A stretch of DNA of 64,000 nucleotides from Promethearchaeota archaeon (GCA_016840165.1 JAEOSU010000027.1:1-64000); one strand, 5' to 3'; shown: positions 1,318 through 9,324, numbered from the stretch's first letter. Program-made: numbers and translations. The notes: generated from the sequence alone by a model not told the origin.

Positions 1318-2409
1318 ATGGCGAACTTAATTAATACTTGCTTAATAGGGATAGGTGACGTCGCGAGTGCTTTGGTACAAGGTACAGAAAATTATAAGAA
1401 AAATCCCGACAATATTATAGGGTTATTACCAGAAATTACTCAATACTCGATTAATGATATCAAGTTTGTTCTGGGGGTGGAAGTAAATGCAAATAAAGTT
1501 GGAAAAGACTTAAGTGAGGCTATTTTTGCTGAGCCAAACTGTAATTTGAAACTATTTGAACCAAGCTTCTTGAATGCTCCCGTGATAAAAGGTCCTATTC
1601 TTGATGGATTAGACAGTAACATTAAAAATATTATTCCTATTGATGAAAATCAGAAAACGACTGAAATTATCGAAGAATTGAAACGATTTGATGTTGATGT
1701 AGTACTTATTTTACTTCCTACGGGATCCCATAAGGCTGTAAAATTCTATGCAAATGCCGCATTAGAGGCAGGTGCCAGTGTGGTGAATGGGATGCCCTCG
1801 TATGTAGCTAAAGATCCCGAATTAGTTAAAAAAGCCGAAAGATTAAGATTGTCCTTAATAGGTGATGATGTAAAATCGCAGATTGGAGCAACTATTATTC
1901 ATCGCTCTTTAGCAAATCTATTTCCTATGAGAGGAGCGATCTTAGACAGAACAATTCAACTTGATTGGGGAGGATCAAGCGATTTTCTTAATTTATTAAC
2001 TCCTATGGAAAATGGAAACCTTCGCTATGAAGAGGGGAAAAGACAATCGAAGACTGAAGCTGTTGTAGCCAATTTACAAAATCGAGACACTGTCGAATGC
2101 CAAATTTCTGCAGTAGATTACATCCCTTTCATAAAAAATCAAAAAGAGGCATATATGCGATTGGAAGGGAGAATTTTCGGAGGTGCTCCAGTCCGTGTAG
2201 ATATTACAATGTTTGTGGAAGATGGCAATAATTCTGCGGGAATATTAGCTGATTGTATTCGAGTCTCCAAAATTGCCAAAGATCGAGGAGTAGGAGGAGT
2301 TCTTAATTCAGCATGTTCATTCTTTAGTAAGCATCCTCCTGAACAGCTAGATGACATTGTTGCTAAAAAGAGACTTGTTGAGTTCATAGAAGGAAAACGA
2401 GAGTGTTAA
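1318..2409 (+). CDS. ino1: myo-inositol-1-phosphate synthase
   Basis: GIGDVASALVQG Rossmann start, GDDVKSQIGAT, DFLNL, SKTEAV and EDGNNSAG motifs of prokaryotic MIPS. Confidence 0.93.
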   Translation: MANLINTCLIGIGDVASALVQGTENYKKNPDNIIGLLPEITQYSINDIKFVLGVEVNANKVGKDLSEAIFAEPNCNLKLFEPSFLNAPVIKGPILDGLDSNIKNIIPIDENQKTTEIIEELKRFDVDVVLILLPTGSHKAVKFYANAALEAGASVVNGMPSYVAKDPELVKKAERLRLSLIGDDVKSQIGATIIHRSLANLFPMRGAILDRTIQLDWGGSSDFLNLLTPMENGNLRYEEGKRQSKTEAVVANLQNRDTVECQISAVDYIPFIKNQKEAYMRLEGRIFGGAPVRVDITMFVEDGNNSAGILADCIRVSKIAKDRGVGGVLNSACSFFSKHPPEQLDDIVAKKRLVEFIEGKREC

Positions 2410-2437
2410 ATAAAAAGTTTAAAATAAGTGAGTTTTC

Positions 2438-3349
2438 TTAACCCTTAATCTTCACTTTTGTTTTATAGTGTTGTTCTCGAATATTAATTAAATTATAGAT
2501 ATGGTCAGATATAAGACTAATACCCTCAGGAATACTTCTAAAACTCGGGAAATCATTAATATCCACTATATAAGAGCCTTCATCAGTTAAAACATAGTCT
2601 ACTCCAAATATAGACATCCCAAATTTTCTTCCTAATCGTTTAATTCTTCGTTTTAAATCTTCTGCGATGGGGACCCGAATATGAACAAGCTCTAAAGGCG
2701 ATAAATTATAATTAAGATTTAAACGGTTATGGGAAACCACAGAAACCACCCATCTACCTATAACATAAACTTTATTAATCATATCATGTCTTCCTAAATA
2801 CTGTTGAAAGAAAAGATCTCTTTCATCATATCCATGGATAAGATCATAGAATTCATTAAAGTTTTTTGCTATTCCTATTATCCTATCGTTTTTTGGTACA
2901 TTGCCAAGATTATGGGAATCTAACTTAATGATGATTTGGTTTTTCTTTAAGAGCGCTTTAACCGCCTCATTAATAGAGTAATAGGTTTGGGGAATTTTTA
3001 ATTTCTTAATTCTTTTTTCTAATAGTTGAAAAGTTTCTTTTCGGCTTTCACACATCTTAACTGAATTGATGCTATTTAATATAGGAATATTAAGATCTAG
3101 TTCTTGAAGTGCTTTGTAAATAACTATATTGTCTTTATGAGTGGTTAGTTTAAGAATAATAAAAGAAATAGGGTATTTCTTTAATTTTTTTACCAAAACT
3201 TTTTTATCAAAGGGTTTCTGCTCATTTTTAAGTAAATCTACAACATAAATATTATAATTTGTCAAGAGGAATTTCTTTATTTTATTAAAAATCTCTCTAT
3301 CTCTATTGACTATAGCTAATATATATGTTTTTTTAATATTGTTAGCCAC
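2438..3349 (-). CDS. ATP-grasp protein, ITPK1-like inositol phosphate kinase
   Basis: IILKLT, QQYL..HDMINKVYVIG and IFGVDYV...IVDINDFPSF match ITPK1 blocks (IIHKLT, QNFINH..LYKVFVVG, LFGIDII...IDINAFPGY). D-x-N rather than the RimK E-x-N. Adjacent to ino1. GTG start. Confidence 0.8.
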   Translation of the reverse strand: MANNIKKTYILAIVNRDREIFNKIKKFLLTNYNIYVVDLLKNEQKPFDKKVLVKKLKKYPISFIILKLTTHKDNIVIYKALQELDLNIPILNSINSVKMCESRKETFQLLEKRIKKLKIPQTYYSINEAVKALLKKNQIIIKLDSHNLGNVPKNDRIIGIAKNFNEFYDLIHGYDERDLFFQQYLGRHDMINKVYVIGRWVVSVVSHNRLNLNYNLSPLELVHIRVPIAEDLKRRIKRLGRKFGMSIFGVDYVLTDEGSYIVDINDFPSFRSIPEGISLISDHIYNLINIREQHYKTKVKIKG

Positions 3350-3593
3350 AGAAAAAACCCTATTAGTTTGATTTCTTTAAAACAAACTAACCTATATAAA
3401 TATATTGATAATAAAGACTTATTAGCGAAATAAATTTCCCCTCAAATATCGTTCTTTATTATAGAAGTTCCAATATTTACTTCTTATTATCATTTTAGTT
3501 AGAATTTATTTATACGAGATTTAATTATAAGATTTAATAGAATCATATCACGTAATAATAAAAGAATCTATTCTGATTAAACGGGCTCAAAAG

Positions 3594-4412
3594 TTGAAAA
3601 AAATAGGACTCATAATAGATAAATATCATTTAGAGAAGAAAGTTCAAGAGTTTATTGCTTATATGAAAAAAGTATGTAAGTTAGCGATCTATATTGAAGA
3701 GGAATATCTATTAACTTTTGATCAAACTAATTACGATGAAGATTTATTTTTTGTCAAAGGAAAAGGAGATTTGATTCTTAGTTTGGCAAAATTGATAGAA
3801 AGAGAAACAGATGTTCCAGTGATTAATTCCTCGAAAGGAATTTGGCTGGCTTATAACAGATTTTTGAATAGTACACTACTAAGAAACGCTGGTATTAAGG
3901 TTCCTAACTTCTCTCTTAATCCAAAAGAAGATTCACCTCCATTTAAAGATTATATTGTAAAAAATGTACGAGATCAAGATAATTATGATTTTGATCCAAA
4001 AATCCAACCATATGATAACTCTATAGAAGTAAAAGATCAAAGAGCAATAGAAGAAGTATATGGAAAACATGCGCAATATACCTTTTTTTATTATCAAGAA
4101 TATATTGAAAGTGAATTTGAATATAAGATCTATGGAGTTGGAGAGGATTTATACTACTTTAAGCAAAAACCAATTTTACGTGATCCGAATAAGATGAAAT
4201 CGCGAGTAAAGATTGATCCTATAGCGGAATTAGGAGAAATTGCTTATAAAGCAATGGAAATATTTAACTTAAGTATCACATCGTTAGATTTTCTAAAATC
4301 AGAAGAAGACATTTTTTATCTGACAGATGTTAATTCTACACCTAATTTCAATTATCTAAAGAATGGCCCCCAGATTGTTGGCAATTACTTATTGCAGCAA
4401 GCAAGAAGGTGA
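3594..4412 (+). CDS. ATP-grasp protein, putative ITPK1-like inositol phosphate kinase
   Basis: YQEYIE, YKIYGVG, SLDFL and LTDVNSTPNF (D-x-N). TTG start. Confidence 0.7.
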   Translation: MKKIGLIIDKYHLEKKVQEFIAYMKKVCKLAIYIEEEYLLTFDQTNYDEDLFFVKGKGDLILSLAKLIERETDVPVINSSKGIWLAYNRFLNSTLLRNAGIKVPNFSLNPKEDSPPFKDYIVKNVRDQDNYDFDPKIQPYDNSIEVKDQRAIEEVYGKHAQYTFFYYQEYIESEFEYKIYGVGEDLYYFKQKPILRDPNKMKSRVKIDPIAELGEIAYKAMEIFNLSITSLDFLKSEEDIFYLTDVNSTPNFNYLKNGPQIVGNYLLQQARR

Positions 4413-4424
4413 TGTGAAGAAATA

Positions 4425-5213
4425 ATGAAAATTGGGATACTCTCAAAGCGAGAAACAGGATTAGTTGAGAAGATTCGCTCCTATTATGCAGAAAGTGGGA
4501 ATAAAGTTACATTATATACCTCAAATAATTTAGAGGTCAACTCTTCGCTTTTTGAGAATGATTTTTATATTTTAAAATCGAAACAATTACTTTTTCTTTA
4601 TGCGGGGTATTTTCTTCATATAAACCATATTCCTGTGATTCCAGATCCAATAATAAGCTATAAGCATAAAAATAGAGTTGAGTCATATTATTCAATTAAG
4701 AATTGTGGACTAAACACACCCAAAATATATATGGGGACACCCCAGACCATTAAAGTAAAAACATCAGCCTCGGATTACCCCTTAATAGTAAAAGATTTAA
4801 TGGGATCGGGCAGTAAGGGAATTAAAATAATTGAGAGTGCTAATGATCTTGATTCTTATACGAATAACATATTATATCTCGAGAAATATATAGAAGGAAC
4901 CCATTATTTAGCATATTTTGTGAATGAAGAGATATGCGTGGGCGAAAAACAGCCACTTGCTAATGAACATTCTGAAGTAAGACTCATTAATCCAGAAAAA
5001 GATATTAAAAAAGCTTTAATGACATGGCGTGTAAAATACAATCTCCTTTTTGGGCATTTAGATATGATAAGAGAAAAGAAGACCAATAAATTAATTGTGG
5101 TAGATCCGGGCACTTTTCCAGAATTTACTAATTGGAAAGCAGATAATAATTTGGTATCAAAAATTTGCAATTTAATCTTAGAAAGATACCAAGAACGGAG
5201 GTATAATGGATGA
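4425..5213 (+). CDS. ATP-grasp protein (ITPK1/RimK-like; degenerate DPG motif)
   Basis: YPLIVK..MGSGSKGI, LEKYIEG, FGHLDMI and VVDPGTFPEF. Confidence 0.7.
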   Translation: MKIGILSKRETGLVEKIRSYYAESGNKVTLYTSNNLEVNSSLFENDFYILKSKQLLFLYAGYFLHINHIPVIPDPIISYKHKNRVESYYSIKNCGLNTPKIYMGTPQTIKVKTSASDYPLIVKDLMGSGSKGIKIIESANDLDSYTNNILYLEKYIEGTHYLAYFVNEEICVGEKQPLANEHSEVRLINPEKDIKKALMTWRVKYNLLFGHLDMIREKKTNKLIVVDPGTFPEFTNWKADNNLVSKICNLILERYQERRYNG

Positions 5214-6172
5214 GTGAAAAAGAGTTAAAAGAGTTAACCTCAAAATATCAAAAAGTAAGGTTATATAAAATAAAACATTTCATTTTTGATTTTGGGGGGG
5301 TTTTAATAGAAAAATCATTTGTCTTAAAGAATTTATTAAATATTATTGAACAAGATTTACACATCAAACTTCCAGATAAAAATGTGGACCCTCATCTTAG
5401 AAAATTACGCAGAAGGCTCTCATCGGGAAGAATTTCTGCAAGAGAGTTTTTAAATCATATTATTGAAAAGTATTATTATCCAAATCAGAATAAGAATGGA
5501 GCCCTACCACCAAAAGAAGTAAATATTGAATATTATTTGGAGTTATGGTTTAATCTATATACGAAAGTTACTAATTTTTCTTATGAAATGGCAGAGATCG
5601 TAGAGCGGTTACATAAAGCGGGATATACTGTTAGTTTAATGTCTAATACCTATGATATTCATGCTAAATCGAATGAATTGAGAGGATTTTACGATATCTT
5701 TGATAATGTTTTTCTTTCTAATGAAATCGGTTACATTAAACCAGATATGGAGAAATACAAATATGTATTGAAAAAGTTAGATACTAAACCCAAAAAGTGC
5801 GTATTTATTGATGATAAATTGGCTAACTTAATTCCAGCTCACCAATTAGGTATAATCGTGATAAGATTCGAATCTTTAGAAAAGTTTAAGGACACTTTAA
5901 AAGAAATTGGAATTGAAAAGATTAAACCAGATCTTCGAAAAGAAATTAAAAAGAAATATAAAAAGTATAAATCCAAGAAAAAAGAATATAAAAAAGCTAA
6001 AAAGGAGTATAAAAAAGCAAAAAAGGAATATTTAAAAAAAAAGCATAAAAAATCTCTGAAAAGAAGAGCTGAATTTCTACATAAGCGATTGATATATAAG
6101 AAAAAAAAAGAAGAATATAAAAAACACAAGAGAAAAAAAAAAGAATTAGTCTCAGAATTCAGAATTGCTTAA
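5210..6172 (+). CDS. HAD-superfamily phosphatase with Lys-rich C-terminal tail
   Basis: FDFGGVL (motif I), MSN, KPD and FIDD motifs. 4-nt ATGA overlap with the upstream gene. C-terminal ~75 aa dominated by Lys. Confidence 0.88.
   Translation: MSEKELKELTSKYQKVRLYKIKHFIFDFGGVLIEKSFVLKNLLNIIEQDLHIKLPDKNVDPHLRKLRRRLSSGRISAREFLNHIIEKYYYPNQNKNGALPPKEVNIEYYLELWFNLYTKVTNFSYEMAEIVERLHKAGYTVSLMSNTYDIHAKSNELRGFYDIFDNVFLSNEIGYIKPDMEKYKYVLKKLDTKPKKCVFIDDKLANLIPAHQLGIIVIRFESLEKFKDTLKEIGIEKIKPDLRKEIKKKYKKYKSKKKEYKKAKKEYKKAKKEYLKKKHKKSLKRRAEFLHKRLIYKKKKEEYKKHKRKKKELVSEFRIA
5978..6040 (+). repeat. Three imperfect 21-bp tandem units encoding KKEYKKA/KKEYKKA/KKEYLKK
   Basis: AAAAAAGAATATAAAAAAGCT / AAAAAGGAGTATAAAAAAGCA / AAAAAGGAATATTTAAAAAAA, in frame within the HAD gene. 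Confidence 0.75.
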
Positions 6173-6190: not shown

Positions 6191-7300
6191 TTATTCTTTT
6201 TCCTCTGCATTATCCTGTTTTTCAGATTGTTCCTTGTTAAAGTCTTCGACTTTCTGCATTACAGATTCTTTAGGTGTCGCAGGAAGAGGCATTTTCTCAT
6301 AGACTTCAATAAATTTGACATCTTCAATTTCGTCAGCCATATGGGTCTGAAGATCCATCGCCAGGCCAAATTTTACATAAGTAAGGTTCTGAAAAAGGAA
6401 CATCTTAGGAATTGTGATTTCTAAACTCTTATCGTTCTCATTATAGTTAACTTGAAAGTCATGCACATTTTCTTTTGGTATTCCTTTTGAAGTCATAAAA
6501 TATTCGATCTTCTCATTAAAATCCTCAATTTTATCTATAACTTCTAAATTATAGTCTATCGATTGTCCGGCTAATGGATGATTATAATCAACAATAACTC
6601 TTCCTTGAGTGATATTAGTAACAACTCCTCGCTGGCCCGTTCCTTTTTTTACAAATTCTTGTCCATATTCAGGGTTCTTACCATCATTAAGTTTTCGAAA
6701 CTTAGAAATGCCAATTCTTTCAATCTTTTTTGGATCTCTTTTCCCAAATGCCTTGGTAGGAGGGATTCTTACCGATTTTTTCTCAAAATAATTCATTGTT
6801 TCCAGAAATTCCGTTAGACCTTCATTTAAAAAACCTGGTTTTCCAACGATCACAAATTCAGGAGTATAATATCCTTGTTTTGCCTTTTCTTCATCAAATA
6901 TACCCGCCATTTTCGCGTCTTCTTCAGAAGATACTCTAAAGATTGTTCCTCTCTGAGATTTCCCGGTTATTTTTACTAAAACAAAATCATCCTTATTTAC
7001 TTTCTTACCCATAAGCCGTTTCTTTTTTTCTTCAACTTTTTTTAGTTCATCAGCGACTTTTTCTTTTTCTAGCGCATCATCTTGGGTTTCTACTGTTGAA
7101 GCTTTTGCAGGTTGATCTAAACCTAATAACTCCTTAGCGTTTTCAATGAATTTTTCAGCAGAAGTTTTTCCAATTCCCTTAATATCCACTAAATCTTCAA
7201 CTTTAGAATTAGCAAGCTTTTCTACTGAATCAATGCCTGCTTCTTTAAGATTCTCCGCTTTTTTACCTAAACCCTTGACGTCATCTAATTTTAGGCTCAT
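6191..7300 (-). CDS. FKBP-type peptidyl-prolyl isomerase (archaeal long type) with N-terminal helix-hairpin-helix domain
   Basis: PPTKAFGKRD and VDYNHPLAG (SlyD/FKBP). N-terminal VKGLGKK...IKGIGKTSAEK HhH pair. Confidence 0.88.
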   Translation of the reverse strand: MSLKLDDVKGLGKKAENLKEAGIDSVEKLANSKVEDLVDIKGIGKTSAEKFIENAKELLGLDQPAKASTVETQDDALEKEKVADELKKVEEKKKRLMGKKVNKDDFVLVKITGKSQRGTIFRVSSEEDAKMAGIFDEEKAKQGYYTPEFVIVGKPGFLNEGLTEFLETMNYFEKKSVRIPPTKAFGKRDPKKIERIGISKFRKLNDGKNPEYGQEFVKKGTGQRGVVTNITQGRVIVDYNHPLAGQSIDYNLEVIDKIEDFNEKIEYFMTSKGIPKENVHDFQVNYNENDKSLEITIPKMFLFQNLTYVKFGLAMDLQTHMADEIEDVKFIEVYEKMPLPATPKESVMQKVEDFNKEQSEKQDNAEEKE

Positions 7301-8583: not shown

Positions 8584-9324
8584 TTATGTTTCAAAACTCA
8601 GCCATTTAAGAATATTTTCTAAAAACTTTATATTATCTCCCGCATCCAGGCCAAAATCTGAATCTTCAAGTAAGAAATCAGAAGATCCGACCGTAACACA
8701 TCTTCCGCTGAAAAATTCAGAAACAACACAAATTGGAACCGACCCTATCGCCCCGGTGTCATCATCCATATAGTATTTGAACTCTGCTTTTTCTGAAGTC
8801 AAAATGATATCTTCAACATCCTCTTCAGTAATAGTGAAGAATGTACAATTTGGGAGGACTAATTCAGTGATACCCTCAGTTATAGGATGGTTAAATAGTT
8901 CATTTACTAGAATATTATCTCTATTAACTAAAAAATTTGATGAAGATTCTTGAATTATCCCATTCCAGAATCTGCGAACTCCGGTAATTTTATATAACAC
9001 TCGAATTGATCCCATTTTCATTGGGATATCCCTATCACCGCCATCACCACTAGTAAAGAAAAGTGAACCGCCTTCGCCAACATATTTCTTGATAGCTTTT
9101 AATTCATCAACTGTAAATTTATCTTCTTTACGATCTTTACTTTGCTGAATATTGCCAATGAAGAGAATATCATAATCCTCAAGAATATCAAAGTCAATAG
9201 GACCTTCATTCTTATCTATGTAATCGATGTCGTAATCTTCTTCATCAAGTACAAACTCCGGAAATTCTTCTATTTTTTCTCTATGAGTGAGATCGACTAA
9301 AATAGAATAACTCATGTTTAACAC
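8584..9324 (-). CDS. Stand-alone GIFT (GldG/IFT52, class I GATase-like fold) domain protein
   Basis: KFTVDELKAIKKYVGEGGSLFFTSGDGG, HPITEG and GRCVTVGSS...DNIKFLENILKWL. No signal peptide. Confidence 0.7.
   Translation of the reverse strand: MLNMSYSILVDLTHREKIEEFPEFVLDEEDYDIDYIDKNEGPIDFDILEDYDILFIGNIQQSKDRKEDKFTVDELKAIKKYVGEGGSLFFTSGDGGDRDIPMKMGSIRVLYKITGVRRFWNGIIQESSSNFLVNRDNILVNELFNHPITEGITELVLPNCTFFTITEEDVEDIILTSEKAEFKYYMDDDTGAIGSVPICVVSEFFSGRCVTVGSSDFLLEDSDFGLDAGDNIKFLENILKWLSFET

Follow-up and report, generated by a model that had tools for sequence, protein, structure and literature searches.

A Lokiarchaeial inositol-phosphate synthase/ITPK locus accompanied by a conserved pair of ATP-grasp genes and a HAD phosphatase gene

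The Lokiarchaeum synthase/ITPK locus and its copy in the window

Four ITPK1 homologues, LcIKA-D, have been described in Lokiarchaeum, where two pairs of them flank two inositol-phosphate synthase (IPS) genes; the accessible text of that study proposes, from the IPS-flanking homologues, that ITPK1 phosphorylates inositol 3-phosphate (Ins3P), and reports that InsP6 partly returns in plc1-delta yeast expressing LcIKC (Desfougeres et al. 2019, PNAS, PMC6900528). Later reviews and a 2026 preprint (bioRxiv 10.64898/2026.05.08.723234) restate the archaeal ITPK1 point, and in the accessible text of these sources ITPK1 is placed among the few metabolic regulators that eukaryotes seem to inherit from an Asgard ancestor (PMC6900528; bioRxiv 10.64898/2026.05.08.723234). 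Full-text literature searches on Asgard, inositol phosphate and ATP-grasp returned Desfougeres et al. 2019 as the sole match, and those on archaeal inositol phosphates found no measurement of higher inositol phosphates (InsPs) in archaeal cells. Here we analyse a window of 64,000 nt from a Promethearchaeota archaeon (GCA_016840165.1, JAEOSU010000027.1:1-64000), that is, the whole stretch of DNA taken from the start of contig C4 of an assembly of 3.6 Mb in 105 contigs (99.7% complete). Its first 6.2 kb hold five genes, encoding a myo-inositol-3-phosphate synthase (MIPS, or IPS), three ATP-grasp proteins (AG1, AG2 and AG3) and a HAD phosphatase. The locus is a copy of the Lokiarchaeial inositol-phosphate synthase/ITPK locus published for Lokiarchaeum in 2019, and its core is already known. 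Our overall picture, in which MIPS and AG1 would form an InsP route, AG2 and AG3 a heterodimer and the HAD enzyme an accessory, is one that we hold with somewhat more than even confidence, most of the doubt falling on AG2-AG3 and HAD. The features are as follows.

1318..2409, plus strand: MIPS/IPS, myo-inositol-3-phosphate synthase (PF01658, TIGR03450)
2438..3349, minus strand: AG1, ITPK-family ATP-grasp protein (PF05770)
3353..3409, minus strand: conserved upstream element of AG1 (alignment of 17 intergenic regions)
3594..4412, plus strand: AG2, divergent ATP-grasp protein, first gene of the AG2-AG3-HAD operon (fold, active-site motifs)
4425..5213, plus strand: AG3, ATP-grasp paralogue with a degenerate metal site (PF02655)
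5210..6172, plus strand: HAD-IA phosphatase with a Lys-rich C-terminal tail (PF00702, PF13419)

The same gene order is found on contig JYIM01000498 of Lokiarchaeum GC14_75, which reads FKBP-HAD-AG3-AG2-AG1-MIPS-AG4-BacA, with the AG1 gene adjoining IPS 61% identical and MIPS 76% identical to those of the window; the GC14_75 contig, however, has past MIPS a fourth ATP-grasp paralogue, AG4, that was not found in this assembly. As genes of the AG1 and AG4 types flank IPS on JYIM01000498, this contig fits the published "pair", and an earlier note on this DNA, made from the sequence alone, was right that ITPK1-like genes near MIPS had been reported in Lokiarchaeum (the LcIK/IPS locus, PMC6900528, as far as its accessible text goes). 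That text names PF05770-type IPS flankers only, with AG2, AG3 and HAD not mentioned in it, and the GC14_75 AG2, AG3 and HAD genes carry no ITPK annotation. Arg156 was considered as a marker for the LcIKC type and rejected, as both the AG1-type and the AG4-type Lokiarchaeum proteins have Arg at 156.

All five open reading frames lie exactly where the earlier note had placed them. MIPS and AG1 converge, their stops 28 nt apart, and are therefore not one transcript, while AG1 and AG2 are divergent with a spacer of 244 bp. AG2, AG3 and HAD are co-directional: the AG3 ATG lies 12 nt past the AG2 stop and is preceded by GGTGAT, and the HAD start overlaps the AG3 stop as ATGA, with GGAGGT 10 nt upstream, so that the claim of translational coupling, made in the earlier note for HAD, holds for AG2, AG3 and HAD. 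AG1 starts with GTG (3347-3349), where the aligned genes of relatives have ATG, and AG2 starts with TTG (3594-3596) here and in most orthologues, which fits the use of weak start codons by this lineage. Upstream of AG1, a TATA-like element, TATATAAAT(N)TATT, lies at 3393-3409, 44 nt ahead of the start codon, and a leader motif, AAAAACCCTA, at 3353-3362. Both are kept in an alignment of 17 such spacers drawn from several genera, the AG2-proximal half of the spacer not being conserved, and the upstream element of AG1 is a putative promoter.

MIPS, AG1 and their conservation

MIPS meets its family model (PF01658, 75.6 bits against a cut-off of 27), and is the single match in its own genome. It also matches TIGR03450 over its full length (294.6 bits, E 1e-87), below the equivalog cut-off of 638, and its orthologues in relatives are 76-83% identical and occupy the same position. 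The MIPS family converts glucose-6-phosphate to Ins3P, and the window's enzyme would supply Ins3P to the neighbouring kinase. Upstream of AG1 in one relative, L052 (6481-9950), and also in L080, three tandem MIPS-family genes are found, those of L052 having 34%, 39% and 79% identity to the window MIPS, which suggests, as far as sequence goes, extra inositol-type cyclases in some genomes.

AG1 carries all four motifs quoted for it in the earlier note (IILKLT, KVYVIG, FGVD and DINDFPSF) and passes the PF05770 gathering threshold with 24.9 bits against 23, through residues 225-285 only, about 60 C-terminal residues; in a family search of its own genome together with its neighbours the PF05770 score is 26.4 bits. 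A profile built from 20 AG1 orthologues matches nine ITPK sequences in the PDB with E values of 9e-6 to 6e-3, the first RimK following at E 0.099. R156, K193 (within KVYVIG), D251 and D263-I-N265 are invariant in these 20 orthologues, and AG1 thus has both the strand Lys equivalent to HsITPK1 K199 and the D-x-N metal motif. Comparison with eukaryotic ITPK1 (PF05770; PDB 2QB5, 2ODT, 1Z2N, 7TN5, 8OXE) shows that AG1 and AG4 share with it the FG-x-D...D-x-N-x-FP-x-F block and the Q-x-F...K-V-Y-V-x-G strand, the motif pattern of which is also seen in AG2; the likeness of AG1 to ITPK1 is, however, confined to about 60-110 residues, and no match to the N-domain PF17927 was seen in AG1. Judged by these matches, AG1 is an ITPK-family ATP-grasp protein and, among the three ATP-grasp proteins, the sole one that reaches the ITPK model. 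Given its family membership and the yeast complementation published for a Lokiarchaeum homologue, AG1 is most likely a kinase of Ins3P or of other low inositol phosphates, and AG4, where present, would phosphorylate Ins3P along with it.

AG4 of the relatives scores 54-61 bits on PF05770, more strongly than AG1. A search of this assembly with 11 AG4 orthologues did not find it anywhere, returning cross-matches to AG1 and AG2 only; perhaps this is a true loss, or perhaps an assembly gap, the contig ending there, 1.3 kb upstream of MIPS. The genome also yielded no IPK-family kinase. IPPK (PF06090) and SPX (PF03105) were likewise not found, in searches that matched no control genome either and are hence uninformative.

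A scan of genome contigs for the AG3 pattern yielded 80 species-level loci, for which each tally counts only the loci with room to see the feature. All lie on Promethearchaeota-type contigs, one of them labelled Nanopelagicaceae. The arrangement beside MIPS (ino1), whose synteny across Asgard genomes the earlier note had proposed to check, is conserved in these loci: AG1 is present in 67/67 loci, MIPS in 66/67, and AG2 lies directly upstream of AG3 in 74/74. HAD is present in 59/75 loci and doubled in three, and a PF05770-type AG4 lies within 6 kb past MIPS in 32/57. The locus labelled Nanopelagicaceae, L068 (DATKTW010000070.1), was deposited as "Candidatus Nanopelagicaceae bacterium" and carries a complete Asgard-type locus; its bin is probably mislabelled or contaminated.

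Such conservation might reflect no functional module at all, the gene order being the inherited collinearity of one archaeal family, with MIPS serving the synthesis of inositol lipids or of solutes, and with the ATP-grasp proteins at work elsewhere. Indeed, FKBP26-like, radical-SAM, GIFT-domain and proteasome genes are as syntenic across the clade as the inositol genes, and because the whole region is collinear, conserved order alone is weak evidence of shared function. The convergence of MIPS and AG1 fits this explanation, as does the restriction of the AG1 family to one family-level clade: AG1 orthologues occur in 15/25 sampled genomes of the window's GTDB family and in 0/125 genomes from 26 other families of the phylum (within its own family, AG1 was found in 71/100 genomes and 7/13 genera). 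Five near-complete genomes from three sister genera, however, are without AG1, AG2 and AG3 orthologues, and their MIPS genes are only 39-47% identical, arguing that AG1, AG2, AG3 and this MIPS type come and go together across genera. Moreover, MIPS stands between two PF05770 genes in Lokiarchaeum as well as in many relatives, and in yeast a homologue from Lokiarchaeum had an effect on the inositol pathway, as the accessible text of PMC6900528 has it. The co-absence pattern and this published result disfavour pure collinearity, which we regard as very improbable.

AG2 and AG3, a predicted pair of divergent ATP-grasp proteins

The earlier note spoke of three ITPK1-like kinases, which is more than the sequences bear out, and proposed PF05770 versus PF08443 as the check. 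AG1 alone reaches PF05770; AG2 and AG3 match neither model, and AG3 furthermore lacks both the Asn ligand and the strand Lys. No Pfam family was found for AG2 at E <= 0.01, and its best NCBIfam models, rimK_fam, MptN and LysX, all stay far under their cut-offs (rimK_fam, TIGR00768, 40.8 bits against 143.4). AG3 reaches the generic ATP-grasp_3 model PF02655 only (29.5 bits), and scores 20.3 bits on rimK_fam against the same cut-off. The genome's true RimK, a control gene on contig C54 (C54:298458-299423; L003:6459-7424), scores 132.5 bits on PF08443 while neither AG2 nor AG3 reaches that model, arguing that they are not ordinary RimK proteins. This control gene adjoins a Maf-like gene and several unannotated genes.

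Active-site motifs were compared in a MAFFT alignment of the AG1-AG4 families with the genome's own RimK, in which the sequences are distant and exact columns approximate. The control RimK has all the hallmarks of the RimK/LysX group, namely the strand Arg (D-I-R), the WxTN...GG-type loop (WKTNIHAGA), E-x-N (E-V-N) and the Gly-rich ATP loop, whereas AG2 has none of them and AG3 the Gly-rich loop only. AG1, AG2 and AG4 all show the K-[IV]-Y strand and D-x-N and are without both loops. The invariant residues of AG2 are K178 (in YKIYG), D232 and D245-V-N247, with KNVRDQ in place of the Gly loop, so that its motif pattern is of the ITPK type; the remark of the earlier note that AG2 has D-x-N unlike the E-x-N of RimK is correct, and extends to the K-I-Y strand motif. 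AG3 has D227-P-G229 instead of D-x-N, invariant in 57 sequences, and has thus lost the Asn metal ligand; it carries Leu at the strand K/R position, retains the Gly-rich loop (KDLMGSGSKG), and its S-N-E-H stretch resembles RimK S-N-L-H. From these motifs, AG3 looks catalytically compromised, and as a subunit it is probably non-catalytic or regulatory.

Profile searches place the two proteins less sharply. The AG2 profile matches ArgX best in the PDB (E 4e-5), E. histolytica ITPK appearing only at E 0.13, and profile-profile probabilities are 62% for A1-A2, 1% for A1-A3 and 84% for A2-A3, which lends weak support to a kinship of AG2 and AG3 without assigning a family. Single-sequence PDB matches of AG2 and AG3 (14-3-3 and VanA, E about 0.06-0.1) were discarded as chance level, and an atlas feature search, which put both in mixed RimK/PF05770 clusters together with some Bacteroidota hypothetical proteins, did not discriminate.

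AlphaFold (AF2) models were obtained with pLDDT (predicted local distance difference test) values of 88.6 for AG2 and 93.0 for AG3. Foldseek and VIA give LysX/ArgX/RimK as top matches for both, with TM scores of 0.73-0.80 and root mean square deviations (rmsd) of 2.6-3.4 Å over about 250 residues. The VIA Z scores of the AG2 model are 22-23.5 for LysX/ArgX/RimK, 21.0 for PPIP5K2, 19-19.7 for ITPK1 and 19.1 for Synapsin; those of the AG3 model are 22-24.7 for LysX/ArgX/RimK, with LysX/ArgX at 23.7-24.7, and 21.4 for Synapsin, and among the 50 entries listed by VIA-align for AG3 neither ITPK nor PPIP5K2 appears, which is not an exclusion. Since the best structural matches are LysX/ArgX/RimK, the label "ITPK1-like" is unsupported by fold for AG2 and AG3. 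A RimK-like fold is nevertheless compatible with kinase chemistry, since the inositol-phosphate kinase PPIP5K is itself RimK-shaped: the kinase domains of PPIP5K/Vip1/Asp1 (PDB 3T9C, 8E1V, 9GR8) give Z 20-21 against the AG2 model, with about 259 residues aligned, although AG2 has no sequence-level match to them and no fused histidine-phosphatase domain. Taken together, motifs and model suggest that AG2 combines a LysX-like scaffold with an active site in the style of ITPK.

The complex prediction for AG2 with AG3 gave ipSAE values of 0.90, 0.90 and 0.89 in three runs against 0.00 for the best of three controls, with at least 97% of contacts agreeing across runs and a partner pLDDT of at least 89; the mark applied is reached by 58/80 solved complexes and by 2/110 mismatched pairs. 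The predicted interface is pseudo-symmetric and formed by the N-terminal and central domains. This prediction makes the conserved AG2-AG3 pair a probable heterodimer. LysX and RimK homodimers pair through the same domains, and the kinase domains of ITPK1 and PPIP5K are monomers.

How the AG2-AG3 pair is to be read depends on which of these likenesses is followed. The main rival to our picture, to which we give a minor but real share of our credence, sees in AG2-AG3 a carboxylate-amine ligase of the RimK/LysX type that attaches an amino acid to the tail of a protein, to a cofactor or to a solute derived from inositol, with HAD finishing the route as in compatible-solute pathways, and AG1 (with AG4) being the only InsP kinases. 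The LysX/ArgX/RimK ligases (PDB 3VPD, 3VPB, 5K2M, 4IWX, 7QYS) are the best fold match of both models, are of similar size (260-280 residues) and have a dimer mode like the predicted one, and this explanation is consistent with the NCBIfam and ArgX matches of AG2 and with the ligase-type Gly-rich loop and S-N-E-H stretch of AG3. It must, however, accommodate the failure of both proteins at the PF08443 and NCBIfam cut-offs, the absence from AG2 of every RimK/LysX hallmark and from AG3 of the Asn metal ligand, and the score of PPIP5K, a true InsP kinase, which against AG2 is nearly as high as that of RimK; nor was a LysW-like carrier gene found at the locus. In the kinase reading, which belongs to our preferred picture, AG2 and AG3 would be co-transcribed and form a LysX/RimK-shaped heterodimer with AG2 catalytic and AG3 non-catalytic or regulatory; our most likely guess is that it transfers a further phosphoryl group to an inositol phosphate. 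Its boldest form, which we consider unlikely, is that AG2-AG3 represents a previously undescribed heterodimeric InsP (or inositol-pyrophosphate) kinase, in which a catalytic subunit with ITPK-type residues and a LysX/RimK scaffold is joined by a degenerate partner, an intermediate between ligases and ITPK/PPIP5K that would supply Asgard archaea with steps performed in eukaryotes by IPK, IPPK or PPIP5K.

The HAD phosphatase and the meaning of the locus

The HAD protein scores over the cut-offs of PF00702 (54.1 bits) and PF13419 (45.5 bits) and matches TIGR02247 (5e-25) and the YihX-type PRK09456 (1.3e-15), its best PDB matches, at about 3e-10, being YihX and the sEH N-domain. These HAD-IA proteins (YihX, an alpha-D-glucose-1-phosphatase, and sEH-N; PDB 8PNO, 2B0C, 5MWA) are the closest sequence relatives of its core. 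The catalytic residues D27 (motif I nucleophile), K178 (motif III) and D200-D201 (motif IV) are kept in 16 orthologues, all 16 of which have D-F-G-G-V as motif I and so miss the Asp+2 general acid of DxD. Active YihX likewise has Gly at Asp+2 of motif I, and activity of the HAD protein is therefore not excluded by this variant. What sets the window's protein apart from YihX and sEH-N is its ATP-grasp operon context and a helical, Lys-rich C-terminal tail of about 90 residues with KKEYKKAKKEY-type repeats (window 5930-6172; orthologues in L024-L052); because both sequence and length of the tail are conserved across genera, it is a selected feature rather than random low complexity. Pfam, NCBIfam and PDB searches matched HAD families only, with no match to the IMPase, MINPP/histidine acid, PTP-like, NUDIX or 5-phosphatase families, and two ordinary IMPase genes lie elsewhere in the genome, on contigs C77 and C30. 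Only position links the HAD gene to inositol phosphates; nothing in its sequence points there. By sequence it is an accessory phosphatase of the sugar-phosphate type with a polybasic tail, its gene retained in the operon at many loci but not at all, and it would trim a phosphorylated product or intermediate.

These findings bear directly on the proposal of the earlier note that three ITPK1-like kinases divide the steps among them and that HAD is a dedicated eraser, the whole forming a complete eukaryote-type write/erase system for soluble InsPs. The tight coupling of AG2, AG3 and HAD speaks for it, as do the ITPK-type motifs of AG1 and AG2 and the conserved polybasic tail, which could bind polyanions; the lack of a detectable IPK-family kinase also means that extra steps would need other enzymes. 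Yet the proposal needs HAD as an InsP phosphatase and AG3 as an active kinase, and neither is supported: AG3 is without key catalytic residues, and HAD falls in the sugar/lipid-phosphate phosphatase group of YihX and sEH-N, outside the known InsP phosphatase families, and is dispensable at 16/75 loci. IPPK and SPX were not found (in searches without a positive control), and the literature searches gave no measurement of higher InsPs in archaeal cells. We consider the complete write/erase system, with HAD as its dedicated eraser, quite improbable.

Our own picture, of a MIPS-AG1 route with an AG2-AG3 heterodimer and an accessory HAD enzyme, has to bear several of the observations above as points against it. 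The PF05770 match of AG1 is barely above the cut-off and covers the C-terminal third only, and the convergence of MIPS and AG1 means that there is no co-transcription of synthase and kinase. Neither P0370 nor P0376, distant AG1-like proteins from other lineages, is encoded beside MIPS (the contig of P0404 is too short to judge), and unrelated neighbours of the locus are equally syntenic. Neither AG2 nor AG3 passes PF05770, and both models are nearer to LysX/ArgX/RimK than to ITPK1; the dimeric architecture is ligase-like, and the passing complex prediction may in part reflect memory of LysX/RimK homodimers. Finally, the HAD gene is absent from 16/75 loci.

Beyond the operon lies a gene for an FKBP26-type peptidyl-prolyl isomerase (6191-7300) with an N-terminal helix-hairpin-helix domain (PF14520, PF18046, PF22199, PF00254), which adjoins the operon in all relatives. 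A protein of 246 residues encoded at 8584-9324 scores barely over the IFT52 GIFT-domain model PF23355 (27.5 bits against a cut-off of 27.2); its gene, flanked by a radical-SAM gene and a proteasome subunit gene, is strictly syntenic across the clade.

Collectively, the window adds no new principle to the archaeal ITPK1 story. What it adds is the company kept by the published kinase and synthase genes: a strictly conserved pair of ATP-grasp genes that carry no annotation and, at most loci, a polybasic HAD phosphatase. In this assembly the locus is without one of the two canonical kinases, and the AG2-AG3 pair is its sole potentially interesting element. If AG2-AG3 is a ligase, the picture of archaeal InsP signalling should stay minimal. 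If it acts on InsPs, the archaeal pathway would be richer than a single-enzyme model, and the pair would document a path from ligase-type ATP-grasp enzymes to inositol kinases.

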